Shown here piece by piece: positions 7,102-59,309 of a stretch of DNA of 64,000 bases. Below the pieces are notes generated by a model. The model saw only the letters and a program-made list of their open reading frames with translations, was not told the origin of the DNA and searched no databases. The DNA is from Nitrospirota bacterium. Its GTDB lineage: Bacteria > Nitrospirota > Nitrospiria > Nitrospirales > Nitrospiraceae. The stretch is from positions 124,633 through 188,632 of the forward strand of contig CAVOXE010000004.1 in NCBI GenBank assembly GCA_963700335.1, given 5' to 3'. Both the position numbers and the translations under genes were made by a program. Positions within the stretch are counted from its first letter, which is position 1. Each line of letters opens with the position of its first letter.

Positions 7102-8940
7102 TTATACGGGTGCGACTACACCTGCTTGATCCAAAAGATCGACCATGGTGAATGTTCCGCTATTGGTCAGTGTGGGTGTCCAGGCCGGGTTTTGATTGAG
7201 ATAGGACGTGGGATCATGTTGGAGCAACCCCGCGAACACGTCAGCTACAATCTTTCCGCCGACAGGTCCCAACTGCTGGCCCTGCTGTAACACTTCCGCC
7301 TCCCTCAAGATATAGAACCATAATGGCGTCTGCGTATCCAAACCCAGAGACTTCACGTCTGCAAAGGCAGTGGCAGGAAGGGGAGTGAGCCCCATGGCTT
7401 GGGCAATAGCCTGACCGGAAGGGATTTCAAAGGTGAGATGCCGCAGCAAATTCCGCTGTGCAAGCGATTGCGGTTCCGCGTCCGTAAGGTTCAGCGGACC
7501 AGGGACCGTCGGCAGATCGAAGAGTCCCGATGAGAGATGCGTATCGATTTTCTTATTTGGCCGAGCATTCCCGTCGCCAAAATCAAAAAATGTTTGCCAG
7601 TCGACGAAGCGACGCGGAGCGCGCTCACCCCCGCGCAGGTCCGCGTGATCCTGAGATGGACTCAAACTATCGTCGAAAATTAGCGCGAAGAATTCTTCGC
7701 CCGGTTCGGGGCCGAAATTCGCGCGATAGCTGGGCCGTACTTGTGAATGGCCGAATCGATAGGCTGCGGTTGAAAACTCCACGGGAATAGACGCATCTTT
7801 CTGCGCGTCAAAGAACATAGGACCGCTACGTAACTCATTCGTAGTCAGCTCAGGACCGACGGTCTTGGGAAGAAATTCATGGGTAATGATCCATTGATAG
7901 TGCCACTGAACCAGGCGTTGTGCTTGCGAAAAGATTTCCGCCGGATCGACAAGGCCGGAAGTCGTCGAGATTTGATCCACGATGGCATTATGGAACTTCT
8001 CAAAGGCCAGGTGGAGCTGGGAAATAACCAAATTTTCATCGTTCCGTGGATCGCCGATAATGGCCTGGCCTGTAGAATCACGCGGCACATCATAACGCTG
8101 CACTCCTCCACGTGACTCAGGCACTGACCCGGGGATCTCTTCAATTAAGAACTTGATCCCGCGGCCGGCGGACGATTGATCGTACAACTGGGGCGAGCCG
8201 ATGGGTCCGCCTCCATAGACGCTATCCAGGTCGAACGCAGGCGTGCGAGAATTCAGCGTAGTGGTGGGGTCTTGCGCTTGCCCCAGAATAGACGATCGAT
8301 CGAAGGTCAGATCGTGATCCAAAAACTGCCCAAGGAACGTCATGCCGGCGGTCATGGCTGGGTTGTCCGGATTGTTGAGGGATTTGCTGGGATCCGTAAT
8401 GAGGGTTCTGGGGTTGCTGACGTCGTCACCGGCGTCTAGAATGCCGCCCCGTTTCCCGAGTTCCATAAGAGCACTTTGGACAGCGGCGGTATTGGGTGCA
8501 AATGACGGCAGATCAGGAAACAGTCGACTGAAGTCTGACGCCGCGATAGAAGGTGAGGCTGACGATGATTGAATCAGCGAATTGAAAAGCGATGGATCTC
8601 TGGTTAAAAGATCACTGACCGTCTGCGTCTGTTGCGGGATGATGCCCGTAGGACTCGTGACGACGGAGGACATCGACGTCGGCTGCTGCCCCATGGTGGC
8701 AAACGACGAGGCTTCTCTCACTAACAAGTCGGCGACACTGAGCGTTTGCTGAGCGTCGGCTTGAGCGGAAAGCACGGTGACCGCTGCCGGTTGTGGCGTT
8801 GCGACTGCTTGTTCTTGATTAATCTGTACGGCCGCCGGGACATCGGCGGAAAGTAAGATGCGAGCTTCCAGCGCTTCAAGGGCATAGGCAGTGGTTCTTC
8901 GTGGCTGATGACGGTAGTTGTCTGGTTGTTTTTTCTTGTC
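7102..8940 (-). CDS. Animal-haem-peroxidase family protein, secreted
   Basis: Track ORF 7102..8982(-). Family motifs FLGQFLDHDLTFD, RNDENLVISQLH and AAYRFGHSQVRP. The N-terminus has a basic stretch plus LEALEARILLSADVP. The ATG at 8940 (GGGGTGA upstream) is preferred to the ATG at 8982. Confidence 0.8.
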   Translation of the reverse strand, partial: DKKKQPDNYRHQPRRTTAYALEALEARILLSADVPAAVQINQEQAVATPQPAAVTVLSAQADAQQTLSVADLLVREASSFATMGQQPTSMSSVVTSPTGIIPQQTQTVSDLLTRDPSLFNSLIQSSSASPSIAASDFSRLFPDLPSFAPNTAAVQSALMELGKRGGILDAGDDVSNPRTLITDPSKSLNNPDNPAMTAGMTFLGQFLDHDLTFDRSSILGQAQDPTTTLNSRTPAFDLDSVYGGGPIGSPQLYDQSSAGRGIKFLIEEIPGSVPESRGGVQRYDVPRDSTGQAIIGDPRNDENLVISQLHLAFEKFHNAIVDQISTTSGLVDPAEIFSQAQRLVQWHYQWIITHEFLPKTVGPELTTNELRSGPMFFDAQKDASIPVEFSTAAYRFGHSQVRPSYRANFGPEPGEEFFALIFDDSLSPSQDHADLRGGERAPRRFVDWQTFFDFGDGNARPNKKIDTHLSSGLFDLPTVPGPLNLTDAEPQSLAQRNLLRHLTFEIPSGQAIAQAMGLTPLPATAFADVKSLGLDTQTPLWFYILREAEVLQQGQQLGPVGGKIVADVFAGLLQHDPTSYLNQNPAWTPTLTNSGTFTMVDLLDQAGVVAPV

Positions 8941-9381
8941 CATCTGCTCACCCCTTGAGAAATAGCTGGATTTTCCACTCATGAATACTCAGTCAGGTGG
9001 GATATACGATGCGAGCAGTAGTAATTAATCGCAATAGGAAAAACAATGGATATTATGGGGGCCCTGGGCTCGTTTGTATCAAGGCCGAGCTTTGTCCAGA
9101 CCCTCCCACCTTTGGTGTGAGAACCACGCCATGGATGAGGAAGAAGCAGGATGAAGAAAGACAAGACAACGGTCGGAGATTTTTCTGGATGAGTTGTTGC
9201 GTTCCTCCTTCATGAATCGAGATCAATGTTCATATTCGATGGAGCCCCGCTTGCAGGATCTCAGGATCTATGGACGAACTGCGACTCTTCCACTACTGAA
9301 CTGAATGCAACTAGACACCAGTTGGCTGTTCCTGTATAAAGACATACCTCTCCAGCACGATGTTCGATCGTCACCGCGAGA

Positions 9382-9456
9382 GCGGGCGTAGCTCAGTGGT
9401 AGAGTCCTAGCTTCCCAAGCTAGTTGTCAGGGGTTCAAATCCCCTCGCCCGCTCCA
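9382..9456 (+). tRNA. tRNA-Gly (anticodon CCC), CCA encoded
   Basis: Manual cloverleaf. Acceptor GCGGGCG/CGCCCGC and D-loop AGTGGTA. Anticodon arm CTAGC-TTCCCAA-GCTAG. T-arm AGGGG-TTCAAAT-CCCCT. Discriminator T followed by CCA. Confidence 0.95.
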
Positions 9457-24944: not shown

Positions 24945-25223
24945 ATGGGTCGGACTGTGAGGACACACACACGGAATCAGCGGTCCATTCCGGCGTTGAC
25001 TCCACGACAGCAGCAGATCTTGAGTCTCATTACGGATGGGTTTACCAGTCGTGAGATTGGGAAACAATTAAAAATCAGCGTTCAGACCGTTGAAGTCCAT
25101 CGATTTAATTTGATGCGGCGGCTCGACGTGCGGAATGTGGCACAATTAATTCGTCAGGCGCTCGTTTTGGACTACCTCCCCAAATCTTATCCTCAAAGGC
25201 CGGTGACGCCGGCGCATTCCTAA
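24945..25223 (+). CDS. LuxR/GerE-type HTH solo regulator (EpsA-like position at the head of the PEP-CTERM/EPS locus)
   Basis: LTPRQQQILSLITDGFTSREIGKQLKISVQTVEVHRFNLMRRLDVRNVAQLI is a canonical GerE HTH. There is no receiver or ligand domain. AAGGAG RBS. Confidence 0.8.
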   Translation: MGRTVRTHTRNQRSIPALTPRQQQILSLITDGFTSREIGKQLKISVQTVEVHRFNLMRRLDVRNVAQLIRQALVLDYLPKSYPQRPVTPAHS

Positions 25224-25241
25224 GTTCAAGATTATTCTTGC

Positions 25242-25332
25242 GGAGAGGTGCGAGAGTGGCTGAATCGAGCGGGGAGTGATCCCTGCTATTCGGGAAACCG
25301 GATCGGATGTTCGAATCGTCCCCTCTCCGCCA
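25242..25332 (+). tRNA. Class-II (Ser-type body) tRNA-like gene with a non-canonical anticodon arm
   Basis: Manual fold. Acceptor GGAGAGG/CCTCTCC, discriminator G and encoded CCA. D-arm CGA-GAGTGGCTGAA-TCG. Long variable arm ATTCGG-GAAA-CCGGAT. T-arm GGATG-TTCGAAT-CGTCC. The anticodon position holds an 8-bp stem (25268-25275 / 25280-25287) closed by GUGA. Read as a 7-nt loop it would be GAGUGAU, which lacks U33. Confidence 0.55.
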
Positions 25333-25434: not shown

Positions 25435-25629
25435 TTATTTTGCACGAATAAGGAACAAGCAAATATGTATGACGACCAAGGTATAGAGCATCTCAAGCGA
25501 GGCGGGGAGTTTTCGTCCGAGAATAGCCTCCTCGTAAAACAAGGGAGCTAGTCCGACGAGAAGAATCAGAGCGGAAATAAGGCCGGGACGAAAGAGAGTT
25601 TTAAGCCGTGAAGCCGTCCTGAATTTCAC
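25435..25629 (-). CDS. Possible small two-helix membrane protein
   Basis: 64-aa ORF with a GTG start and AGGAA 9 nt upstream. It has two hydrophobic segments. It could be spurious. Confidence 0.25.
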   Translation of the reverse strand: MKFRTASRLKTLFRPGLISALILLVGLAPLFYEEAILGRKLPASLEMLYTLVVIHICLFLIRAK

Positions 25630-25979
25630 AATCTCATTCCTGTGAGGTAAAGGAAGTCAGCGTGGCCACAGTGTAAAAGATCAAATCACCAGAAACAATG
25701 CGACAAAAGTCGCTTCACCTTTGGCATTATATAAGGACTAATCTGCCGACAGGCGCAACCTCGTTTAAGCAATTGCCAACTACCAAAAGAGATTGTGGCA
25801 GACCATGAAACCGCCTGGATGTACATCTCCTGTCTGAGTTTGTACCTTCCACAAATAACCCAAGCAATACGAAATAAGATTGGCGCACGAGACTTTGGAC
25901 GTAAGCCACCCGTCTAATAGTTTCAGCCTAACGACACTGGTACAAAGATGCATCGCCCCATTCCATGATGGAGGTCTGT

Positions 25980-26267
25980 ATGCATGCACGAACGCTCTTT
26001 GCAGTGATCCTTGCCGTGCCGGTTATTTTCCTGACCGCTATGGACGTCGAACCGGCCGGAGCGATGTCTTTTGGTAATCATCACAATAATGGCGGTGGAT
26101 CGGCTCCCAGCAATGCTGGAAACAGCATATCTTCATCGTCGACTTCGACCATCACGTCGTTGGATGCGCCTCCATATATGACCCCGGTGCCTGAACCCTC
26201 AAGTATCGTGCTCTTAGGATCGGGAATATTCGCGTTGGGATGGTGGCGATACAGACGACATAATTAG
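25980..26267 (+). CDS. PEP-CTERM sorting-domain protein (small Ser/Gly/Asn-rich exosortase cargo)
   Basis: Signal peptide MHARTLFAVILAVPVIFLTAMDVEPAGA. Low-complexity middle. C-terminus VPEPSSIVLLGSGIFALGWWRYRRHN gives the PEP motif, a TM helix and a basic tail. GGAGG lies 5 nt before the ATG at 25980. Confidence 0.82.
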   Translation: MHARTLFAVILAVPVIFLTAMDVEPAGAMSFGNHHNNGGGSAPSNAGNSISSSSTSTITSLDAPPYMTPVPEPSSIVLLGSGIFALGWWRYRRHN

Positions 26268-26586
26268 TCGAATTGACGGTTTCTGCCCCAGTCGGGTTGA
26301 TCACTCGCTTGTGCGACGTGGTCGGTGAGTCGTCGAGTTTTTCGTCTCGTTCGAGACATGCACTGTAAGTGAAATGGCGGAGCTCCATGTGCTATCCGCC
26401 CGCCGTGAAATTGCTGCAGCGACTATGAGGTTCTCACCTACTGTAATGCAGTTCAATTTCTTTATGTTTTGAAATCCTGACCAGTCCTGCTCTTTGCCGG
26501 TGCAAAGGCATCGAAGCTATGATACATCCTGTTTTTTGGATCAGGAAAACACGAGGCAGGCGAAATCAAGTTATGCATCTCTGCCG

Positions 26587-27792
26587 ATGAATACTAAAAC
26601 GACGGACTTTCTTGTAATCGGTGGTGGGGTCATAGGCCTTAATATCGCCCGCGACTTGCGCGCACGCTATGGTGCCTCCCGGGTGACGCTTATTGAAAAA
26701 GAGTCGGATTGTGGTCTCCATGCCAGTGGACGAAATAGTGGGGTGCTGCATGCCGGATTTTATTATGCCCCCGATTCTCTCAAAGCCGCATTCACGCGTG
26801 GAGGCAACCAAGAGCTGACGGCATACTGCGAAGCGAAGGATCTGCCTATCAACCGATGTGGAAAGTTGGTTGTCGCTAAAAACCGGCAGGATCATCCAGC
26901 GCTCGATGAACTTCGTCGGCGTGGCGAGGCAAACGGCATTTCGTTGCAAGAAATTTCCGAGCATGAGGCGAAGGAGATCGAGCCGCGAGTCAAGACCTTC
27001 GAGCGGGCTCTCTTTTCGCCAACGACTTCGACGGTCGATCCCCGACGAGTGCTAAGTGCGATGAAGACCGATGCAATCAAGGAAGGAGTTGTGGTCGAAG
27101 CGGGCGTACGGTATATCCGCCGCAGTGGCTCAGCTCTTATTACCTCCACCGGCTCTTATCAGGCTGGGTATGTGGTGAACGCCGCCGGTTTGTACGCAGA
27201 TCGGATCGCTCGCGACTTCGGATTCTCCGACCGATATCGGATTCTGCCGTTTAAGGGCTTGTACCTCTACGCGAACGAGGAGGCGGCCGCCCTCCGGACG
27301 AACGTGTATCCAGTGCCGGATCTCGGCAATCCGTTCTTGGGCGTTCATTTCACCGTGACCGTTGATGGCCACGCGAAGATTGGCCCGACTGCAATTCCCG
27401 CGCTCTGGCGAGAGCACTATCGGGGGTATCAAGGCTTTAAGTTGGGAGAGTTTGCTGAAATCCTTGTGAGGACTTTTGGCCTGATCGCCTTGTCGGCATT
27501 TGATTTCAAACGATTGGCGGTGAGGGAATTGGCCAAGTATTCTCGTGCCCGACTCGTGTCTCAAGCGGCGGCCTTATTGGAAGGCGTCCATCTCAATCAT
27601 TATCGGACATGGGGCCCCGCCGGCATTCGAGCTCAACTGCTTGATCTCAAGCAGCGTAAACTCGAAATGGATTTCGTATTGGAAGGCGATGACCGATCCA
27701 TGCATGTGCTCAATGCTGTTTCACCAGCCTTCACGTGCTCTCTTCCATTTTCGCGCCATGTGGTCGACCGCATTGCTGCACTCGTGAAATAG
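26587..27792 (+). CDS. lhgO: FAD-dependent L-2-hydroxyglutarate oxidase-like oxidoreductase
   Basis: DFLVIGGGVIGL dinucleotide fold, HASGRNSGVLHAGFYYAPDSLKA and CGKLVVA are collinear with LhgO/YgaF. The ATG at 26587 gives ~401 aa. Track ORF starts at 26494. Confidence 0.72.
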   Translation: MNTKTTDFLVIGGGVIGLNIARDLRARYGASRVTLIEKESDCGLHASGRNSGVLHAGFYYAPDSLKAAFTRGGNQELTAYCEAKDLPINRCGKLVVAKNRQDHPALDELRRRGEANGISLQEISEHEAKEIEPRVKTFERALFSPTTSTVDPRRVLSAMKTDAIKEGVVVEAGVRYIRRSGSALITSTGSYQAGYVVNAAGLYADRIARDFGFSDRYRILPFKGLYLYANEEAAALRTNVYPVPDLGNPFLGVHFTVTVDGHAKIGPTAIPALWREHYRGYQGFKLGEFAEILVRTFGLIALSAFDFKRLAVRELAKYSRARLVSQAAALLEGVHLNHYRTWGPAGIRAQLLDLKQRKLEMDFVLEGDDRSMHVLNAVSPAFTCSLPFSRHVVDRIAALVK

Positions 27793-28416: not shown

Positions 28417-29010
28417 ATGACCCACTCAGTGAGATATTGCAATGCCGACAGTCGAGCAGCGTCCAGACAAGAGGACGATGAGGAACACATGACGGCGAAG
28501 ACGGTGGGGCAGAGTTGGTATGCCATCCGCACCCGTTCACGCCATGAGAAGGTCGTTCGCGATCAATTGGCCGGTCGCGGCATCGAGCCGCTGCTACCGC
28601 TCTGCATCTCCATCAGTCAGTGGAAAGATCGAAAGAAAACCATTCAACTGCCGCTGTTTCCTGGTTACTGTTTCGCGAAGTTTGCCTTAGCCGATCGAAT
28701 GCCTGTTCTGCAAGCTCCCGGCGTTATCGAGATCGTAGGGCAAGCCCAATGTCCTGAGCCCGTTCCCCCACGAGATATCGAGATCATCAAAGCTCTTGTT
28801 GAAAGCTCTCATCGCTATGAGTCCCATCCCTATTTACAAGAGGGCGCCATGGTCGAGGTCATTCATGGTCCCTTTTTAGGCTTGCGCGGTCATCTACTCC
28901 GAAAAGCCAATCGTTGCCGACTGGTTGTGGCGGTACACATAATACGGCAAGCTGCATCGATCGAAATCAATGCCGACGACGTCATGCCGATTTCCATGCC
29001 CGTTGCCTGA
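28417..29010 (+). CDS. NusG-paralogue transcription antiterminator (RfaH/UpxY-like)
   Basis: NGN-domain start QSWYAIRTRSRHEKVVRDQL...LPLFPGYCFAKF and KOW-like EGAMVEVIHGPFLGLRGHLL. Alternative start ATG at 28489. Confidence 0.8.
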   Translation: MTHSVRYCNADSRAASRQEDDEEHMTAKTVGQSWYAIRTRSRHEKVVRDQLAGRGIEPLLPLCISISQWKDRKKTIQLPLFPGYCFAKFALADRMPVLQAPGVIEIVGQAQCPEPVPPRDIEIIKALVESSHRYESHPYLQEGAMVEVIHGPFLGLRGHLLRKANRCRLVVAVHIIRQAASIEINADDVMPISMPVA

Positions 29011-39944: not shown

Positions 39945-41182
39945 ATGGCACGGTTGCGGTCAAATGTTCATGAAAAGCGGAATGCGAAGGGGATTTACCT
40001 TGCCGATGCCGATTCAGAAATTACTGGCAATTCCAGAAAGCCCATTGCGATCCTATGCTTGATCACCGGCCTTGAGTACGGCGGCGCTGAGATGATGCTG
40101 TATAAGTTTCTTTCGCGCATGGACAAAACAAGGTTTACGGCCCAGGTTATTTCGATGATCGATCTCGGTCCTTTCAGCGGAAGAATCCAAGAGTTGGGTG
40201 TGCCTCTGTTGTCCCTTGGGATGCGACGGGGAAGTCCGAATCCGACTGGCATCCTACGGCTTGTTCGTTGGCTTCGCCAAAACCGACCTGATGTCATACA
40301 AACGTGGATGTACCACGCCGACCTCATGGGTGGCTTCGCAGCCAAGCTGGCGGGAGGCATACCGGTTGCATGGAACATTCGACACACAGAATTTATTGCT
40401 CACGACAATCCGACTAACCGTGTATACGATGCGGATGTGCGCTCGATTATCTAAGTGGCTTCCCACCCGCATTGTCTGCTGTTCGGAAGCCTCTCGGGAA
40501 GTGCACACCAAACTAGGATATGCAGCCGAAAAAATGGTCGTAATTCCTAACGGAATGGATTTGGCTGCTTTCAGGCCTGATGAGGCGGCGCGCGACTCGG
40601 TCAGGAAGGAACTTAACCTTTCATCTGATGTCGTGATTATCGGCATCGTGGGAAGATTCGACCCAAACAAAGACCATCGGAATTTCATTCAGGCTGCCGC
40701 TTTACTGTGTCGCGAAGGATTAAACGCACATTTCCTGTTTTGTGGCGACGATATGACCTGGGAGAATACTCAACTAGCCTCGTGGTTTGATGGGACAGGT
40801 ATCGGAGAACATAGCCATTTGCTCGGTCACCGAGATGATATGCCTCGTCTGACGGCCGCCTTTGATATTGCCTGCGTTTCTTCTTCGAGTGAGGGCTTTC
40901 CAAATGTCATCGGGGAGGCCATGAGCTGTGAGATTCCGTGTGTGGTGACTGATGTTGGAGACTCGGCGCTGATCGTTGGCCAAACTGGCACGCGTTGTGC
41001 CTCCGCGAGATTCTAAAGCGTTGGCTGCCGGCTTGCGCGAGTTGATCGATCTCGGCCGTGAGGGGCGACGCCAGATTGGCAGAACGGCTCGTCAACGGGT
41101 AAAAGAACTCTATGACTTGCCCGACATTGTACGGCGGTACGAGAACCTCTACGAGGAACTGGCAAATACCTATCGCTCGTAA
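39945..41182 (+). pseudogene. GT4-family glycosyltransferase, 2 frameshifts; tandem paralogue of 41317..42591
   Basis: Track ORFs 39945..40454, 40198..41016 and 40976..41182 align end to end with the intact neighbour. Shared blocks: LCLI(T/S)GLE(Y/H)GG(A/T)EMMLY, RPDVIQTWMYHADL, EGFPNVIGEAMSCEIPCVVTDVGDSALIVGQTG and LPDIVRRYENLYEELA. The breaks lie near 40400 and 40990. Confidence 0.7.
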
Positions 41183-41316
41183 TTAAAGCCGAAGCCTAAG
41201 TACCTTCTACGACGAATTGCTAAAAGTTGATTCCATTTGATGTCGCCACAGCGGCGACTATTCCCCTGAGCTTCCTGTGTCTTGCGATCTAGACTCAACC
41301 GCAGAACGAATGTGAG

Positions 41317-42591
41317 ATGAGAATAGAACAATCCATGCCACGGCTCCAGTCTAAGAAACTCCATGACGGTGCGCATCGGCACACCTACCGCGGATCGCGG
41401 AAAACTATTTCTGTCCTGTGCCTGATCAGTGGGCTTGAGCATGGCGGAACTGAAATGATGCTCTATAGATTTCTATCGGGCATGGACAGAACGCGATTTT
41501 CAGCCCAAGTGATTTCGATGATTGGGGTTGGACCATATAGTAATAGGATACAGGAACTAGGGGTGCCTTTGTGGTCGCTCGGAATGCAGCGGGGCATTCC
41601 GAATCCAATGGGTATCGTGCGGCTTGTTCGCTGGCTTCGGGAAGCCCGCCCTGATGTCATTCAAACGTGGATGTACCATGCTGATCTTCTTGGCGGCGTG
41701 GCAGCGAAGCTGGCTGGAAATATTCCGGTGGCATGGGGCGTCCATCAAAGCGATATGAGCAGAGAAGGAAATGGGTGGTTGACTCTGCGGACCATTGCCT
41801 TATGCAGCAGAATGTCTCCGTGGCTGCCGTCTCGAGTCATTTGCTCCTCCGAGGCTTCTCGACAAGTCCATGTTTCAGCGGGCTATTCGGCGAAGAAAAT
41901 GATGGTCATTCCCAACGGTTTTGATCTGGAAATTTTCAAACCCAATCCAGCTGCCCGGCGATCCGTCAGAAAGCAGTTAGAAATTCCCGATGAAGCTCCC
42001 CTCGTCGGTCTATTGGCTCGTTTTCATCCTCAAAAGGATCATCGCAACTTTGTCGAGGCTGCCGGATTACTCTCTCGCATGCGACCCGATGTTCATTTTC
42101 TTCTCTGTGGCGACGGGGTGACACCGGATAATGCGGAGCTTCTGCAAATGCTGCAGAAGGCCGATATTCTGGGGCGGTGTAGAGTGCTAGGGAATCGAGA
42201 CGATGTTCCCTTCCTCCTGGCTTCGCTTGATATTGTCGCATCTTCGTCGTTCGCAGAATCTTTTCCAGTGGTGATAGGGGAAGCGATGAGCTGTGAAATT
42301 CCGTGTGTGGTGACTGATGTCGGTGATTCGGCGCTAATAGTGGGGCAGACAGGCCGAAGCGTGCCCCCTAGAGATCCTAAGGCCCTGGCTTTCGGCCTCC
42401 ATGAGTTGATCCAACTCGGCCGCGAGGGACGTCAGCGGTTGGGCAAAGCGGCCCGCCAACGGATTAGAGCTCATTACGACTTGCCGGACATTGTGAGGCA
42501 GTATGAGAACGTGTATGAGGAGCTTGCTAGCGTCACGCATCATGAACATGAAAATAGAGTTGCAGGATGGACGCAGTCGTCACATCGTTAA
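41317..42591 (+). CDS. GT4-family glycosyltransferase
   Basis: Intact 424-aa ORF with the GT4 core ESFPVVIGEAMSCEIPCVVTDVGDS. The start may be the internal ATG (MPRLQS...). Confidence 0.8.
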   Translation: MRIEQSMPRLQSKKLHDGAHRHTYRGSRKTISVLCLISGLEHGGTEMMLYRFLSGMDRTRFSAQVISMIGVGPYSNRIQELGVPLWSLGMQRGIPNPMGIVRLVRWLREARPDVIQTWMYHADLLGGVAAKLAGNIPVAWGVHQSDMSREGNGWLTLRTIALCSRMSPWLPSRVICSSEASRQVHVSAGYSAKKMMVIPNGFDLEIFKPNPAARRSVRKQLEIPDEAPLVGLLARFHPQKDHRNFVEAAGLLSRMRPDVHFLLCGDGVTPDNAELLQMLQKADILGRCRVLGNRDDVPFLLASLDIVASSSFAESFPVVIGEAMSCEIPCVVTDVGDSALIVGQTGRSVPPRDPKALAFGLHELIQLGREGRQRLGKAARQRIRAHYDLPDIVRQYENVYEELASVTHHEHENRVAGWTQSSHR

Positions 42592-42612
42592 TATTATGAG
42601 GGAGGTCCTACA

Positions 42613-43622
42613 GTGATTCTCGTAACTGGTGCAGCAGGGTTTATCGGTTCTCATGTGTCGCAACGATTGCTTGAGCGAGGAGAGGAAGTGCTCGGGCTCG
42701 ACAACATGAACAACTATTATGACGTCAGGTTGAAGGAGGCGCGGTTAGCCCGGCTGACTTCACAAAAAAACTTTACCTTTCTAAAGGCGGACCTGGCCGA
42801 CCGTGACGCGCTCTCTTCGGCGTTTGCCTCCTATCCTATTCAGCTCGGTGGTGCATCTCGCGGCCCAGGCAGGCGTCCGTTATTCCTTGGTCAATCCGCA
42901 TGCCTATGTCGACGCTAATATCACGGGGTTTCTTAACATCCTGGAAAACTGCCGGCATGCAAAGGTTCGGCATCTGGTGTTCGCATCCTCCAGTTCCGTG
43001 TACGGTGGAAACAAGCGGATGCCGTTTTCAGTTCATGACAACGTCGATCATCCCGTCTCACTCTATGCCGCCTCAAAGAAGGCCAATGAACTGATGGCCC
43101 ATTCCTATGCGCATTTATTTGGGATTCCTTGCAGCGGATTGAGATTCTTTACGGTCTATGGACCATGGGGCAGGCCAGACATGGCCCTTTTCATCTTCAC
43201 TGAAGCCATCGTGAATAACAAACCGATCGATGTCTTCAACTTTGGAAACATGCGCCGTGACTTTACCTACATCGACGATATTGTAGAAGGCGTCTTACGC
43301 GTGCATGATCATCCGGCATCTCCCAATGCCGATTGGTCTGGGCCAGGACCCGGATCCAGGGACATCTTCAGCTCCCTATCGCATCTATAATATCGGGAAT
43401 CACCAGCCTGCGGAACTCTCGTACCTCATCGAACTTCTAGAGAAAGCTCTGGGGAAAACGGCTCACAAGAACTTGTTGCCCATGCAACCCGGCGACGTGC
43501 CCGCTACATACGCTGATGTGGATGATTTGATTCGTGACGTGGGATTTAAGCCGGATACCTCGATCGAGGTCGGGGTTCAACGGTTTGTGGATTGGTATCG
43601 GGACTATTATCAGTTGAAATAA
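42613..43622 (+). pseudogene. NAD-dependent nucleotide-sugar epimerase (UDP-glucuronate 4-epimerase / CapI-like), 2 frameshifts
   Basis: MILVTGAAGFIGSHV (GTG start, GAGGGAGG RBS), [23 protein letters not shown] (YxxxK), [16 protein letters not shown] and [11 protein letters not shown]. The blocks are spread over track ORFs 42613.., 42803.. and 43305... The breaks lie near 42840 and 43340. Confidence 0.75.
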
Positions 43623-43682
43623 CGTGCCTCATCTGTTGGGTCGGATCGTTTGATATCCGGCCTTCGCTGGAGGAGTTAAGTA

Positions 43683-45660
43683 ATGTGTGGAATTAGCGGA
43701 TTTCTCGATTTATCACATCGGTCCAGAAACGATGAACTCCAGGCTACCGTCTTGAAGATGGTGAATACGCTTCACCATCGTGGCCCCGACGATAGCGGAG
43801 CCTGGGCGGACGCTGAAACAGGAATCGCGCTGGGGCATCGCCGCTTGTCGATTGTGGATCTGTCCCCCGAAGGGCAGCAACCGATGCGCTCCGTATGCGG
43901 TCGGTACGTGATCAGTTTTAACGGCGAAGTGTATAACTTCAAGGCGCTCCGCGCTGAAATGGAAGGATTGGGCCATACATTTCGCGGCCATTCCGATACC
44001 GAGATCATGTTGGCCTGTATCTCTCAATGGGGCCTTCTTCCGTCGGTGGAACGTTTCAATGGAATGTTTGCGTTTGCCTTGTGGGACCGCGCAGAGAGAA
44101 AGCTACACCTGGTTCGTGATCGTCTCGGCGAGAAGCCTCTCTATTATGGATGGATGGGCAGGACGTTTCTGTTCGGCTCGGAATTGAAGGCCTTATGTGC
44201 ACATCGTAGTTTTAAACGCGAGCTGAATCGTGATGCCTTGGCCCTCTATTTGCGTCATAACTATATTCCCGCTCCCTATTCGATCTATCAGAATGTGTTC
44301 AAGGTACAACCCGGCATGATCGTGACCATCGATCCGGCCGACGGCAGTGGATCGGTTGCTGCTTTACCGTATTGGTCAGCTCGGCGATGCTGCCGAACGA
44401 GGAGTGGCTGAACCGTTTTCAGGATCCGTCGATGATGCCCTAGCTGCACTTGGATGAATTATTATCCGATGCCGTTAAACTACGTATGCATGCCGATGTG
44501 CCGCTTGGCGCGTTTCTGTCGGGCGGGCTCGATTCTTCGACGATTGTCGCACTGATGCAAGCCCAAAGCACAAAGCCGGTGCAGACTTTTACTATTGGAT
44601 TCTACGAGAGTCGCTACAACGAAGCTCAGAATGCGAAGGCTGTCGCCCATCACTTGGGGACAGAGCATACTGAACTGTACGTCCGACCCGAAGAAGCCAT
44701 GGCCGTGATCCCGCGGCTAGCGACCTTGTATGATGAGCCATTTGCAGACTCGTCTCAAATCCCTACATTTCTGATTTCTCAGTTGGCTCGGCGGCATGTC
44801 ACGGTGAGTTTGTCAGGCGATGCGGGCGACGAACTATTTGCCGGTTACGACCGGTACTTTCTGGGCCACACGCATTTGGGACAAGGTAAACCGAATTCCC
44901 ATGGGACTTCGGAGCTTGGGCGCCAAAGGTTTGAAGACGATCTCACCCGCGTATATGGGAAGCCATCTTCGGGGGACTGCGACCGTTGTTCTCCCGATAG
45001 ACTGAAGATGCGAAACCCGCGAGATAAGCTTGGCCGGCTTGCTGAATTACTCATGACCGACTCTCGTGAAGCGCTGTACTTGAGCCTGGTTTCTCATTGG
45101 AAGGCGCCCGCATCGTTAATCTATGGCGCCAAGGAACCGCAAACGCTCTTGACTGATCCTGGGCAGTGGGCAAACCTGCCGGAGTTTACGCAGCGCATGA
45201 TGTATCTCGATATGGTGACCTATTTGCCTGACGACATTCTGGTCAAAGTGGATCGAGCCAGCATGGGCGTAGGGTTGGAGGCGCGTGTCCCTTTTCTCGA
45301 CCACCGTGTCGTCGAGTTTGCGTGGCAAATTCCTCTTATCGATGAAAATCCGTAACGGTCAGGGCAAGTGGCTGTTACGGCAGCTCTTGCACCGATATGT
45401 TCCGAAGGCATTGGTCGAACGGCCCAAAATGGGGTTTGGTGTCCCCATCGATGGCTGGCTGCGCGGGCCACTCCGGGAGTGGGCCGACACGCTATTAGAT
45501 GAAAAACATTTGAAAGATCAAGCGATCTTCGATCCCAATCCGATTCGCAGCGATATGGGCGGAACACCTCTCCGGTAGGCAGGATTGGCACTACTATTTA
45601 TGGGACATCCTCATGTTCCAATCCTGGTTAGAGCACCAAAAAAGTAACGGTGTCATGTAA
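43683..45660 (+). pseudogene. Glutamine-hydrolysing asparagine synthase (AsnB-type amidotransferase, as found in exosortase/EPS loci), at least 6 frameshifts
   Basis: MCGISGF Ntn start and HRGPDDSG. FLSGGLDSS PP-loop. DEPFADSSQIPT. YLPDDILVKVDRASMGVGLEARVPFLD. GFGVPIDGWLRG. Tail WAEHLSGRQDWHYYLWDILMFQSWLEHQ. Pieces come from track ORFs 43683.., 44450.., 44820.. and 45285.. plus unlisted frames. The last in-frame stop is TAA at 45658-45660. Confidence 0.75.
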
Positions 45661-54847: not shown

Positions 54848-56312
54848 ATGAGATATATGCTGGGCAGGTTGAAGTATTGTGTGACGTGCTGGGCGTTAAG
54901 CGTGGCACTGAGTTGTGTTTTGATGGTTGACGACCGGGCATGCAGCGTCGTCGACAGCGCATCAAAGTTACCGGCTCGGACCCAATGACGTGGTTCGGAT
55001 CCAAGTCTATGGAGAAGAAGACTTAACGATCGAAAGTAAAATTGATGGCGACGGAAATATTAATTTTCCATTACTGGGGATGGTGACGGTCGCGGGTAAG
55101 ACTCTCCCGGAACTTCAGGAATATCTAGGCGCTCAGTTGGCACGAGGCTATGTTCGCACGCCGCGGGTCACCGCCTATATATTCAAATATCGAAACTTTT
55201 ACGTCAGTGGAGAGGTCAAGACTCCAGGAGGCCATCCGTATGAGGAGGGGCTCAGCGTTCAAAAAGCGATCACGATGGCAGGTGGTCTGACGGACAAGGC
55301 AGAACGGGACAACGTTTACGCCTTACGGCGCGTCAATGGTCAAGAAGAGACAGTGCCGGTTACATTGGAGAGCCCGGTATACCCCGACGATACCATCGTT
55401 GTGCCTGAAGGACAGAAAATATACGTGAGTGGCGAGGTCAAGACGCCCGGCCGCTTTGGTTATGAAAAAGGATTGACCGTCCAAAAAGCGTTGAGCCTGG
55501 CAGGGGGGCGCACAGAAAAGGCGGAAAAAGGTGTCATCAAAGTGACGCGCGTGACGGAAGGCCTGGCGGCAACGTTGCCTGTGAATCCAGAGGCGGTTGT
55601 CATGCCGGGCGACATTCTCGTGGTCGAGCCGCAAGATTATAAATTCTACACCAGCGGAGAAGTGAAAAACCCTGGCGGATATTCCCATAAGGAGGGTCTG
55701 ACCGTTCACAAAGCTATTGCCATGGCAGGAGGGCTCACCGAAAAAGCAATGCCTGGCGATTTGCATATCCTTCGTTCGGTGAATGGACGAGAGGAAACAC
55801 TCGAGGTTAAATTGGATACCTTGGTCCTCCCAGACGACATCATCGTGGTAGCTCAGGGAGAGAAGTTTTTTGTTAACGGAGAAGTGAAGATACCGGGTCG
55901 CTATTTATACGAGAAGGGGCTGACCGTGCACAAGGCCATCACGATGGCCGGTGGGTTTACCGACAAGGCTGAAAAGGCCGCGATTAAAGTCACTCGGCAG
56001 GTCGATGGGAACCCTCACACAGTGGAGGCCGATCTTGAGGCCAGGGTGCTTCCCAATGATTTTATTGTCATCGCCCAGATGCATAAAGTGTATGTGAATG
56101 GAGAAGTAAAGAAGGCCGGTGACTATCCGTATGAGAAGGGCCTGACGATCCATAAAATCATCACTATGGCTGGTGGGTTTACGGACAAGGCGGCGGTGGG
56201 GCGGACGAAGATTTTACGGATTGTGGATGGGGAGGAGCAATCGTTGCGGGTGACGCTGGATGCGCAGGTGTTGCCGGAGGATATCGTCGTGGTGCCGCGC
56301 AGTTTCTTTTAA
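54848..56312 (+). pseudogene. Wza-like polysaccharide export protein A: Poly_export domain + 5 SLBB modules; signal peptide is out of frame
   Basis: Track ORF 54927..56312 starts at a TTG with no signal peptide. An ATG at 54848 encodes MRYMLGRLKYCVTCWALSVALSCVLMV in the -1 frame and would join near 54925-54935. Poly_export: YRLGPNDVVRIQVYGEEDL...INFPLLGMVTVAGKT. Five repeats of the type FYVSGEVK.PG.Y.YE.GLTV.KAI.MAGG.T.KA follow. Confidence 0.75.
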
Positions 56313-56384
56313 GGCGGCGGGGAGACGGACGAAGCGGCCGGGACGGGAGAGTCGTGATTGGAGCGGGACCGTGAGGGAAGGACC

Positions 56385-58286
56385 ATGAACAGAGCACGGG
56401 CGCGAGGGACGAGGGGGCTACGGAAGGGACTGTGGCTGGGCATCCTGCTGGCGTCATGGGTAGCGGTGGCGGTGGCGGCGACCGCGCCCGGGTACCGGCT
56501 GGGGCCCAATGATGTGGTGCGCATTCAAGTCTATGGCGAAGAAGACTTGACGGTGGAGAGCAAGGTGGACGGCGAGGGCACGATTCATTTTCCGTTAGTG
56601 GGCCAGGTGGCGGTCGGAGGGAAGACCACGCAGGAGCTACAGGAGTTGCTGACGACGCGCTTAGCGGGGGGCTATATGCGCGCCCCGCGCGTGACGGCCT
56701 ATGTGTTGAAGTATCGCAATATTTACGTCAGTGGAGAAGTGCGGACGCCGGGCGGACATCCGTATGAGGAGGGCCTCACGGTGCAGAAGGCCATTACGAT
56801 GGCGGGTGGCATTACCGAGAAGGCCGAGCGGGGCGGCGCGGTGCGCATTGTGCGGTCCGTCAACGGGCAGGAGACGGCAGTACTGGTTCAGTTAGACAGT
56901 CTCGTCTTACCGGACGATACGATTGTGGTGGCGGAGGGGCAGCGAGTGTATGTGAGTGGGGAGGTGAAGACGCCGGGGCGGTATCTGTATGAGAAGGGGT
57001 TGACGGTGCACAAGGCGCTGGGGATGGCCGGGGGGCGTTCGGAGAAGGGGGAGAAGGGGCTGATCAAAGTGACGCGGCTGACCCAGGGCGTGGCCGAGAC
57101 GCAGGTGTTGGCGCCGGAGGCGGCGGTGCTGCCCGATGATATTTTGGTGGTGGAGCCGCAGGACTATAAGTTCTACGCGAGCGGCGAGGTGAAGAATCCC
57201 GGCGGCTATCCCTATAAGGAGGGGCTGACGGTGCATAAGGCGCTGGCCATGGCCGGCGGGCTGACGGAGAAGGCCGAGCGCGGAGACGTGCACATCTTAC
57301 GCGCGGGCAAGGGGCAGGAGGAGACGCTGGTCGGCAAGCCCGAGAGCCTCCTGCTGCCGGACGATACGATTGTGGTGGCGGAGGGGCAGCGAGTGTATGT
57401 GAGTGGGGAGGTGAAGACGCCGGGGCGGTATCTGTATGAGAAGGGGCTGACGGTGCACAAGGCGCTGGGGATGGCCGGGGGGCGCTCGGAGAAGGGGGAG
57501 AAGGGGCTGATCAAAGTGACACGGCTGACCCAGGGCGTGGCCGAGACGCAGGTGTTGGCGCCGGAGGCGGCGGTGCTGCCCGATGATATTTTGGTGGTGG
57601 AGCCGCAGGACTATAAGTTCTACGCGAGCGGCGAGGTAAAGAATCCCGGCGGCTATCCCTATAAGGAGGGGCTGACGGTGCATAAGGCGCTGGCCATGGC
57701 CGGCGGGCTGACGGAGAAGGCCGAGCGCGGGGACGTGCACATCTTACGCGCGGGCAAGGGGCAGGAGGAGACGCTGGTCGGCAAGCCCGAGAGCCTCCTG
57801 CTGCCGGACGATACGATTGTGGTGGCGGAGGGGCAGCGAGTGTATGTGAGTGGGGAAGTGAAGACGCCGGGGCGGTATCTGTATGAGAAGGGGTTGACGG
57901 TGCACAAGGCCATTACGATGACCGGCGGCTTTACGGAGAAAGCGGATAAGGCCACGATCCACGTGACGCGCGTCGTCAACGGTGTCGCGCAGACCCGGGA
58001 AGCTACGCTGGAGACGTCCGTGCTGCCGGATGATTTCGTCGTCATCTCCCAGCTGCACAAGATTTATGTCAACGGGGAGGTGAAGAAAGCCGGCGACTAT
58101 CCCTATGAGAAGGGGCTGACGATTCATAAGATCATTACGATGGCCGGGGGCTTTACCGATAAAGCAGCCGCCGGCCGGACGACCATCTTGCGCATCGTCA
58201 ATGGCGAGGAGCAATCCCTCCGCGTCACGCTTGATGCCCTCGTGCTCCCCGAAGATATCGTCGTCGTCCCCCGCAGCTTCTTCTAG
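56385..58286 (+). CDS. Wza-like polysaccharide export protein C: Poly_export domain + 7 SLBB modules
   Basis: The ATG at 56385 (GGGAAGGA RBS) gives the signal peptide MNRARARGTRGLRKGLWLGILLASWVAVAVAA. The Poly_export domain is followed by 7 SLBB repeats. The protein ends ...VVVPRSFF. Confidence 0.85.
   Translation: MNRARARGTRGLRKGLWLGILLASWVAVAVAATAPGYRLGPNDVVRIQVYGEEDLTVESKVDGEGTIHFPLVGQVAVGGKTTQELQELLTTRLAGGYMRAPRVTAYVLKYRNIYVSGEVRTPGGHPYEEGLTVQKAITMAGGITEKAERGGAVRIVRSVNGQETAVLVQLDSLVLPDDTIVVAEGQRVYVSGEVKTPGRYLYEKGLTVHKALGMAGGRSEKGEKGLIKVTRLTQGVAETQVLAPEAAVLPDDILVVEPQDYKFYASGEVKNPGGYPYKEGLTVHKALAMAGGLTEKAERGDVHILRAGKGQEETLVGKPESLLLPDDTIVVAEGQRVYVSGEVKTPGRYLYEKGLTVHKALGMAGGRSEKGEKGLIKVTRLTQGVAETQVLAPEAAVLPDDILVVEPQDYKFYASGEVKNPGGYPYKEGLTVHKALAMAGGLTEKAERGDVHILRAGKGQEETLVGKPESLLLPDDTIVVAEGQRVYVSGEVKTPGRYLYEKGLTVHKAITMTGGFTEKADKATIHVTRVVNGVAQTREATLETSVLPDDFVVISQLHKIYVNGEVKKAGDYPYEKGLTIHKIITMAGGFTDKAAAGRTTILRIVNGEEQSLRVTLDALVLPEDIVVVPRSFF
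56910..57910 (+). repeat. In-frame 447-bp tandem repeat, ~2.2 copies (gene C)
   Basis: The anchor ccggacgatacgattgtggtggcggagggg recurs at 56910, 57357 and 57804, an exact 447-nt period. Units are near-identical. Confidence 0.92.
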
Positions 58287-58454
58287 CCATTTGTTCCACT
58301 GTGCACTCTAGGTTCTTCCAGCCTGTTTCCCTTAATCCTAGTGCCCACCTTCGGTATTAACTACTGAGCGACAGTCGCACCCGGAGTGATTGTTTTGAGG
58401 CCCGTTATCATAAGCGCTTCTGTGAAATGTGAACGAGCGAGCTAAGGTGGAAAT

Positions 58455-59235
58455 ATGAACACTCGATCCCTTCGATTGAAATGGTGTCTGCTCAGTGTAT
58501 TTCTGACTTGCTTGATGTCTACCGCCGGCGTCGCATCACCCATATCCTCGCATCAAAGCTATCGATTAGGGGTCAATGATGTGGTGCGCATCCAAGTCTA
58601 TGGGGAAGAGGACCTGACGGTAGAAAGTAAAGTGGATGGCGATGGGAATATTAATTTTCCTTTGTTGGGGATGATATCCATAGCAGGCAAGACGAGTCTG
58701 GAGTTGCAGGAATATCTCACGACACGGTTGGCGGGCGGTTACGTACGGTCGCCGAAAGTCACGGCGTCCATCCTTAAATACCGAAATTTCTATGTGAGCG
58801 GAGAAGTGAAGAGCCCGGGAGGGTACCCCTATGAGGAAGGACTTAGTGTTCAAAAAGCACTCACCATTGCAGGGGGTATGACGGAAAAGGCCGAGAAGCA
58901 TGACTTGAATATCCTCCGATCGGTCAATGGGAATCCACAGATCCTTCCGGTCAAGGCCGATAGCGTCGTTCTGCCCGATGATACGATTGTCGTGGCGGAG
59001 GGCAAGCGCTTCTATGTCAATGGTGAAGTGAAGTCGCCAGGCCGTTATCTCTACGAGAAAGGCCTCACGGTGCACAAGGCCATCACCATGGTTGGGGGGG
59101 TTTACGGACAAGGCGGCGGTGGGGCGGACGAAGATTTTACGGATTGTGGATGGGGAGGAGCAATCGTTGCGGGTGACGCTGGATGCGCAGGTGTTGCCGG
59201 AGGATATCGTCGTGGTGCCGCGCAGTTTCTTCTAG
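58455..59235 (+). pseudogene. Wza-like polysaccharide export protein D: Poly_export + 2 SLBB modules, frameshifted in a G7 tract
   Basis: Signal peptide MNTRSLRLKWCLLSVFLTCLMSTAGVA. After ...HKAITMVGG the G7 run (59094-59100) throws the frame, so track ORF 58455..59282 ends in Gly/Arg-rich nonsense. With G6 the sequence reads FTDKAAVGRTKILRIVDGEEQSLRVTLDAQVLPEDIVVVPRSFF and stops at 59233-59235. Confidence 0.75.
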
Positions 59236-59309
59236 AGGCGGCGGGGAGACGGACGAAGCGGCCGGGGACGGGAGAGTCGTGATTGGAGCGGGACCGTGAG
59301 GGAAGGACC

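Follow-up and report, generated by a model that had tools for sequence, protein, structure and literature searches.

The window considered here is a 64,000-nucleotide (nt) stretch of a Nitrospirota genome (Nitrospiraceae; assembly GCA_963700335.1, contig CAVOXE010000004.1, positions 124,633 to 188,632 of the forward strand). At 25242-25332 on its forward strand it carries a 91-nt gene shaped like a serine transfer RNA (tRNA-Ser), in which an 8-nt loop, GAGUGAUC, occupies the place of the 7-nt anticodon loop. The local order of genes runs from an NlpC/P60-CHAP-like protein through a 78-residue protein and a small LuxR regulator to this tRNA-shaped element, and then to a 64-residue open reading frame (ORF) on the opposite strand. 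The element can be read arm by arm as a tRNA, both as DNA (25242-25332: GGAGAGG-TG-CGA-GAGTGGCTGAA-TCG-A-GCGGG-GAGTGATC-CCTGC-T-ATTCGG-GAAA-CCGGAT-C-GGATG-TTCGAAT-CGTCC-CCTCTCC-G-CCA) and as RNA (GGAGAGG UG CGA GAGUGGCUGAA UCG A GCGGG GAGUGAUC CCUGC U AUUCGG GAAA CCGGAU C GGAUG UUCGAAU CGUCC CCUCUCC G CCA), with stem lengths given below in base pairs (bp).

25242..25332, + strand: the whole element including the encoded CCA; called tRNA-??? by ARAGORN, aligned arm for arm with canonical tRNA-Ser, and present as eight variants in one syntenic slot
25242..25248, + strand: 5′ strand of the acceptor stem, GGAGAGG, pairing with 25323-25329; unchanged in 8/8 variants and 100% paired
25251..25267, + strand: D-arm CGA-GAGTGGCTGAA-TCG of the class-II tRNA-Ser type, with G18 and G19; invariant in the variants
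25269..25286, + strand: aberrant anticodon arm, a 5-bp stem GCGGG/CCTGC with the 8-nt loop GAGTGATC; predicted to form a 7-bp helix with a GUGA tetraloop at 25276-25279
25288..25303, + strand: long variable arm ATTCGG-GAAA-CCGGAT, a 6-bp helix with a GAAA loop; helix retained in all variants
25305..25321, + strand: T-arm GGATG-TTCGAAT-CGTCC; loop invariant, one stem pair U-G in the window and C-G elsewhere
25323..25332, + strand: acceptor-stem 3′ strand, CCTCTCC, with the discriminator G73 and the encoded CCA; invariant in the variants

Most of this anatomy had been recognized in an initial annotation of the window, and a direct reading agrees with it on the 7-bp acceptor stem, G73, and encoded CCA (invariant in the eight variants), on the class-II CGA/TCG D-arm with its GAGTGGCTGAA loop, and on the variable arm of 6 bp plus GAAA. 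The T-arm, described there as perfect, is so in its TTCGAAT loop and not in its stem, where the window has one U-G wobble. The tRNA-Gly gene at 9382-9456 likewise has its CCA in the DNA, which makes this trait of the element unremarkable in its genome.

Standard tRNA detection treats the element as an anomaly. ARAGORN finds it at its exact coordinates and returns an undetermined type, 'tRNA-???', with the 4-base anticodon gtga, that is, with an 8-nt loop; over the 64 kilobases it makes only two tRNA-like calls, the second being an ordinary tRNA-Gly(CCC). In a 301-nt search, the Rfam tRNA (RF00005) and tRNA-Sec (RF01852) models leave the element unmatched both at the gathering score and at E<=10, whereas a canonical tRNA-Ser(CGA) carrying the identical D-arm scores 52 bits against RF00005. 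Substitution of CTNNNAA for the 8-nt loop, with no other change, leads ARAGORN to call a tRNA-Ser, and the loop is thus the sole defect of the element. These outcomes sustain the claim of the initial annotation that a tRNA-Ser-shaped gene lacks a usable anticodon loop.

Aligned with four canonical bacterial tRNA-Ser genes, the element shares the 7/5 acceptor/T arrangement, G1-C72, G2-C71, G73, and CCA, the 3-bp D-stem with its GAGUGGCUGAA loop, the long variable arm, and a TΨC-type T-loop. It departs from them in the anticodon loop, where canonical tRNA-Ser has a 7-nt CUNNNAA loop presenting a Ser anticodon (NGA or GCU) and the element has the 8-nt GAGUNAUC, with no Ser anticodon in a valid register. 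Eisenbacteria and a Bacillota have the 20-mer of its D-arm in genuine genes for tRNA-Ser(CGA) and tRNA-Ser(GCU), and it is therefore a legitimate tRNA-Ser D-arm. Similarly, the acceptor strand GGAGAGG is that of the Eisenbacteria tRNA-Ser(GGA) and tRNA-Ser(GCU) genes, the (CGA) gene having GGAGAGA. The same 20-nt D-arm occurs once in a Bacteroidota metagenome-assembled genome (MAG; L019, 508-527), at a place where ARAGORN calls no tRNA; this could be coincidence or a piece of a tRNA.

Other RNAs with long variable arms were considered and rejected as identities. Bacterial tRNA-Sec has an 8/5 acceptor/T branch, a 6-bp D-stem with a 4-nt loop, and a UCA anticodon, whereas the element has a 7/5 branch, a 3-bp D-stem, and an 11-nt D-loop, and is unmatched by RF01852 as noted above. 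The allo-tRNAs and selC* tRNAs are Ser- or Sec-like molecules with long variable arms, some of which are believed to take no part in translation or to act as regulators (Mukai et al., 2017, PMC5389517). They combine a 12-bp branch, divided 8/4 or 9/3, with a tRNA-Sec-like D-arm and a readable anticodon (PMC5389517), in contrast to the 7/5 arrangement and tRNA-Ser D-arm of the element, which has no readable anticodon.

Given that the anomaly lies in a single loop, the integrity of the assembly is of immediate concern. The initial annotation had raised the prospect of a normal tRNA-Ser altered by indel errors in its anticodon loop, and some genes in the polysaccharide cluster of the window do look split or truncated. 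However, the 91 nt recur without a single change in five independent JGI metagenome contigs from this species, although outside the element these contigs depart from the window by 1.3-2.1%, a combination that excludes assembly error. The 8-nt loop architecture recurs in seven further variants from JGI, ENA, NCBI, and Logan assemblies, and no single indel restores U33, so that we assign an assembly artefact a practically negligible probability.

The element has a single genomic address. Among contigs with LuxR orthologues at 77-85% identity, 12 of 12 have a 91-nt 'tRNA-???' in the same position, and the eight distinct variants found in total all lie between the small LuxR gene and the 64-residue ORF, within a narrow Nitrospira clade. 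When 185,579 species-representative genomes were scanned for the D-arm 20-mer, with the anticodon arm unconstrained, the odd gene was returned from three Nitrospirales/Nitrospiraceae MAGs, together with unrelated canonical tRNA-Ser genes. A metagenome scan that required the tRNA-Ser D-loop, the GAGTNATC loop, and the T-loop, and left the D-stem, anticodon stem, variable arm, and acceptor free, matched eight contigs, all of them members of the element family and five of the eight identical to the window over 91 nt. Both are exact-pattern searches of partial collections, which diverged relatives could escape. Nothing similar was seen in the viral contigs scanned, and a limited search for an outgroup whose slot holds a canonical tRNA-Ser, which would represent the ancestral state, found none. 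Among the carriers of the element are contigs (loci L001-L004) whose LuxR protein is the one encoded by Nitrospira sp. Nam74, a strain of lineage V for which a closed genome exists (PMC12342949). As judged from these sequence comparisons, the element occurs in a narrow clade of soil Nitrospira and represents a derivative, specific to that lineage, of a serine tRNA gene.

The extent of conservation is best appreciated against the adjacent LuxR gene, in which 62-75% of four-fold sites differ between the window and the other clades, amounting to saturation, whereas the element remains 81-92% identical. No variant departs from the others in the acceptor stem, at positions 8-9, anywhere in the D-arm, in the T-loop, at G73, in CCA, or at nine of the ten T-stem positions. 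Substitutions are found only at position 26, in the anticodon stem, at one loop position, at position 44, in the variable arm, and at one T-stem position. All 208 stem cells hold standard pairs (208/208, 100%), compared with 43-58% when the partners are slid by 1-3 columns. The variable-arm helix survives many changes, among them the exchange of its first pair, A-U, for G-C and a loop of 4 nt versus 3 nt, and the changes in the anticodon-arm stem likewise retain pairing.

A natural contrast is provided by a decayed remnant that occupies the same slot in one lineage (L033, 2771-2860; also L034 and L035), where the neighboring genes are all intact. In this remnant, the spacer and the 5′ acceptor strand have been deleted and the T-loop now reads GTTCACCTCG. 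These loci are only 0.32 per four-fold site from L009, whereas lineages at four-fold distances of 0.22-0.28 from L009 have 0-2 nt differences in the element; the element therefore decays fast once unconstrained. We conclude that strong purifying selection has maintained the element on all of its arms and on its loop, a case that is built on the rate contrast and the placement of the substitutions rather than on covariation statistics.

This conclusion bears directly on the possibility that the element is a non-functional pseudo-tRNA or an island-integration leftover that has yet to decay, or a sequence conserved for some DNA-level reason. A defective anticodon loop, outright decay in one lineage, a narrow family, and formal covariation that falls short of significance would all be expected of such a relic. 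Nevertheless, the tRNA core is invariant precisely where neighboring synonymous sites are saturated, every stem substitution preserves pairing, and the decayed copy illustrates how fast neutral decay proceeds at much smaller distances. Furthermore, the genes on both flanks are syntenic across clades, which argues against a position at an island border, no repeat of the 3′ end of the element exists within the window, and the element is absent from the viral contigs. We therefore hold a relic of any of these kinds to be very improbable, and the decayed pseudo-tRNA and integration scar that the initial annotation had entertained can both be set aside.

The loop itself is under equally tight constraint. 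It reads GAGUNAUC in all eight variants, with N being C in six and G in the two window-type variants; seven of its eight positions are invariant, and its outer bases, complementary as G...C and A...U, are the same in every variant. A nearest-neighbor model puts the closed loop ahead by about 5 kcal/mol and gives its pairs probabilities of 0.94-1.00 in the variants tested, and the resulting 7-bp helix also appears in minimum-free-energy and RNAalifold predictions. The 8-bp helix that the initial annotation drew at 25268-25287 holds in the window as an A-U pair plus 7 bp closed by GUGA, the eighth pair, A26-U44, becoming A.G in one clade. The GNRA description of its tetraloop does not carry over to the family, for which the tetraloop consensus is GUNA: GUCA occurs in six of the eight variants and GUGA only in the window species.

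From the point of view of decoding, no register of GAGUNAUC offers, on a regular 5-bp stem, both the near-universal U33 and a purine at position 37. Forced into a 7-nt register, the loop reads GAGUGAU with A33 and a bulge, in agreement with the initial annotation, and would present the anticodon GUG (His) in the window and GUC (Asp) in its relatives; in the 8-nt register the anticodons would be GUCA or GUGA. Because the sole variable loop base sits inside any would-be anticodon, close relatives would read different codons. With its loop predicted to be closed, the RNA is most likely unable to decode. One caveat pertains to the global fold. The acceptor, D, and T arms are less favored than a long-range pairing between the 5′ and 3′ thirds in energy folding of the window and L009 elements, as well as in the RNAalifold consensus. 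The alternative long-range pairs in the consensus are all invariant, so that comparison neither supports nor excludes them; we regard this alternative as a probable folding artefact.

Could the element nonetheless be a working decoder with an expanded loop? A quadruplet GUCA would read UGAC and GUGA would read UCAC, or a tRNA-Ser bearing GUC (Asp) or GUG (His) would mistranslate, for which the mistranslating tRNA families described in Streptomyces and the allo-tRNAs offer a comparison. ARAGORN fits the element to a tRNA model whose loop has 8 nt and whose anticodon has 4 bases, deletion of one loop base converts the call to tRNA-His or tRNA-Ser, and the loop sequence is constrained. In addition, seryl-tRNA synthetase (SerRS) is indifferent to the anticodon (PMC9976931), and tRNAs with 8-nt loops can work, as exemplified by the yeast mitochondrial tRNA-Thr(UAG) (PMC7609411) and by SufB2 (PMC7803779). 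The absence of U33 and purine 37 in any register on a regular stem speaks against such a role, as do the outer loop bases G-C and A-U, predicted to be paired at a probability of at least 0.94. The variable base inside the anticodon, moreover, would have relatives reading a stop versus Ser codon, or Asp versus His, which is hard to fit with conserved decoding. On balance, decoding by this RNA appears quite improbable to us.

Outside the loop, the tRNA body retains everything that an L-shaped fold would need, and with it, presumably, the features for 5′ and 3′ processing by tRNA enzymes and for recognition by SerRS. Serine identity in bacteria is specified by G1-C72, G2-C71, G73, and the long variable arm, independently of the anticodon (PMC9976931); the initial annotation was right to locate the SerRS recognition elements outside the anticodon and within this RNA. 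As these features are all present and invariant in the element, it is reasonable to propose that SerRS charges its RNA with serine.

How the RNA would be produced is suggested by its surroundings, of which three features are pertinent.

24945..25223, + strand: 92-residue LuxR/GerE-type helix-turn-helix regulator (Pfam GerE, 1.3e-18), with its stop codon 18 nt before the element
25224..25241, + strand: 18-nt spacer with the hairpin CAAGA-TTAT-TCTTG, ending 1 nt before the element
25435..25629, - strand: 64-residue hydrophobic ORF, convergent to the element; every syntenic locus has it at this position

LuxR orthologues precede the element at every locus that carries it, with a gap of 18-24 nt between stop codon and element, and no sigma-70-like promoter was found between the two. 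Since this gap is so short and lacks a promoter-like site, we infer that the element is co-transcribed with the small LuxR gene upstream. Bacterial mRNA-tRNA co-transcripts exist, for example secG-leuU. Ribonuclease P (RNase P) would then excise the element, its 3′ end would be trimmed to the encoded CCA, and the excision would at the same time set the 3′ end of the LuxR mRNA. In three clades, the spacer forms a hairpin of 4-5 bp whose end lies 1-2 nt ahead of the tRNA 5′ end and whose sequence differs from clade to clade: CAAGA/TCTTG in the window (25224-25241), AGTGT/ACACT in L001 (3280-3299), and GTCGA/TCGAC in L009 (3274-3297). In L005 and L020 the hairpin is weak or missing. Such a hairpin could protect the upstream mRNA after RNase P cleavage.

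The same arrangement would suit an element that acts exclusively in cis, in which the tRNA-like fold serves as an RNase P cut signal defining the LuxR mRNA 3′ end and the released RNA is a by-product. The constant distance from the LuxR stop codon, the missing promoter-like site, the hairpins just ahead of the cleavage site with their clade-specific sequences, and an association limited to one orthologous LuxR gene are all in keeping with this proposal; paralogous small-LuxR loci have neither the element nor remnants of it. RNase P needs little beyond the coaxial acceptor/T-arm helix and the elbow. Preservation of the variable-arm helix, of G73, and of an invariant loop sequence in the anticodon arm is not easily explained by a cut signal, however; the hairpin is weak or missing in two variants, and the LuxR gene is intact where the element has decayed. 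A purely cis-acting role is the leading alternative to the reading preferred here, and we think it unlikely.

We favor instead a reading in which the element is a functional, selectively maintained, non-decoding mimic of tRNA-Ser. Its foundation is an anatomy, a single syntenic slot, purifying selection on arms and loop, and the want of any canonical anticodon-loop register, which the sequence comparisons establish; for the whole package, inferred steps included, we estimate a probability of roughly 60%. In outline, a tRNA-Ser-derived gene would have had its anticodon loop replaced by the conserved self-complementary 8-mer, giving a 7-bp helix with a GUNA tetraloop, and the closed anticodon helix would block decoding. 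The excised and serylated RNA would then have its role off the ribosome, either as a dedicated seryl donor or as a mimic that binds or titrates a tRNA-recognizing factor.

Several observations weigh against this proposal. The covariation among the variants is not statistically significant, as 267 of 500 column shuffles reach the observed score, and the changes in the anticodon and T stems all pass through G-U. The two extra pairs that would close the loop never vary, and the predicted 7-bp helix is consequently argued from thermodynamics only. In the lineage with the decayed remnant, the element has been lost with all of its neighbors retained, and on that comparison it is dispensable there. 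The family is small, with eight variants in roughly five species-level lineages. The D-stem has G11-C24, whereas a C11-G24 pair in the D-stem is an identity element of Escherichia coli tRNA-Ser, although other phyla use the same D-arm for tRNA-Ser. Lastly, the conserved neighborhood contains no tRNA-dependent enzyme, including any Fem-type aminoacyl-tRNA transferase.

Beyond the general proposal, a more specific role can be suggested only tentatively, and we consider it doubtful: the RNA might be given over to carrying activated serine to a reaction outside the ribosome, or it might be a decoy of charged or uncharged tRNA-Ser that is sensed by a regulator. Were this so, the RNA, accepted in full by the tRNA maturation enzymes and by SerRS and kept from decoding by its zipped loop, would represent the first 'anticodon-less' tRNA, linked to a small LuxR/EpsA-like regulator in Nitrospira.

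By analogy, the element would function most like a small set of tRNA-derived RNAs that have left translation. To our knowledge, only a handful of these are known, among them tRNA-Other, the Fem-substrate tRNAs, and mascRNA, each of which has taught something new about the reuse of the tRNA scaffold. The tRNA-Gly isoacceptors that serve the Fem transferases of Staphylococcus have a normal anticodon loop and avoid translation through weak binding to EF-Tu. The likeness to the element is one of idea, that of an RNA charged by the normal synthetase and kept off the ribosome as an aminoacyl donor; the Fem-substrate tRNAs differ in retaining a normal anticodon loop and in occurring together with Fem transferases, none of which was found among the 41 window proteins scanned or in the conserved neighborhood of the element. 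In the case of mascRNA, a tRNA-like fold follows the MALAT1 transcript, RNase P cleavage makes the upstream 3′ end, and a proper anticodon loop is lacking. The position of the element, 18-24 nt past the LuxR stop and with no promoter-like site between, would fit such an arrangement. However, mascRNA is eukaryotic and lacks a full synthetase identity set, whereas the element conserves a whole Ser-type body including the variable arm and G73.

A bacterial parallel is tRNA-Other of Bacillus cereus, a tRNA-derived RNA that does not work in translation, is retained in a regulatory role, and is probably expressed within a larger transcript (Rogers et al., 2012, PMC3399842). It is charged by the LysRS1/LysRS2 complex (as cited in PMC5389517). 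Both are tRNA-derived genes retained by selection and inactive in translation, the inactivity of the element being judged from its sequence; tRNA-Other flanks a pathogenicity island and belongs to another tRNA type, in contrast to the Ser-type identity and conserved loop closure of the element, which does not lie at an island border. No account of the element came up in literature searches that covered tRNA-like genes of Nitrospira, anticodon loops of 8 nt, and pseudo-tRNAs, and it is not mentioned in the reviews of non-canonical tRNAs or in the Nitrospirales comparative-genomics paper that we consulted.

The element presents an unusually clean case, in which the features for folding, processing, and serylation appear frozen by selection and the decoding loop has been replaced by a self-closing sequence. 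If the RNA is charged, it would constitute a natural split of aminoacylation from decoding and point to a seryl-tRNA-dependent reaction or sensor in nitrite-oxidizing bacteria. If it is a processing signal only, bacteria would have in it an equivalent of the MALAT1/mascRNA mechanism. In either event, tRNA finders label the element undetermined or miss it, and similar genes may have been overlooked elsewhere.

The neighborhood offers few leads to function. The 92-residue LuxR protein is weakly similar to the DNA-binding part of EpsA, and its closest named homologue is that of Nitrospira sp. Nam74. The 64-residue ORF has no family match, and PADLOC, applied to the four conserved neighbors, returned nothing meaningful and no defense-system match. 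A link to Fem-type transferases and PEP-CTERM loci, suggested by the initial annotation, gained no support: only the window species has the PEP-CTERM gene (25965-26267, 100 residues) and, farther on, the polysaccharide cluster after the element, their place being taken in other clades by a response regulator, or by an RRM protein and a DUF748 protein. In line with that annotation, which saw no FemAB-like gene in the window, the 41 window proteins scanned include no FemAB, aminoacyl-tRNA synthetase-like, or other tRNA-dependent enzyme.

A separate association of small LuxR and PEP-CTERM genes is seen in several Nitrospira-like contigs, where LuxR paralogues of about 90 residues lie directly downstream of proteins of 267-288 residues with PEP-CTERM/exosortase sorting domains (L017, 2104-3279, in the Nitrospira sp. 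Nam74 genome; L036, 921-2156; L040, 1597-2773; L041, 1594-2773); the element is absent from all of these loci. In the window, an L-2-hydroxyglutarate-oxidase-like gene (26494-27792) and the PEP-CTERM gene form a block specific to the window species between the element and an UpxY-family (NusG/RfaH-like) antiterminator gene (28417-29010), which heads the polysaccharide cluster.

Within that cluster, several genes at 40198-45355 look split or truncated, which may reflect frameshift errors or real pseudogenes. The asparagine synthase seems to be divided between two ORFs (43683-44411, GATase; 44450-45355, synthase domain), an epimerase is present as a fragment (42803-43390), and a glycosyltransferase is N-terminally short (40198-41016); same-species contigs covering 18-30 kilobases have 4-16 gap openings relative to the window. 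Farther downstream, at 54927-61658, where G+C content jumps to 0.58-0.63 and GC skew to 0.2-0.3, lie genes for four consecutive Wza-like polysaccharide export proteins, each of which has 2 to 9 SLBB repeats. Finally, a 626-residue protein encoded at 7102-8982 on the - strand matches the animal haem peroxidase family (E = 5e-26), an unusual find for a nitrite oxidizer.

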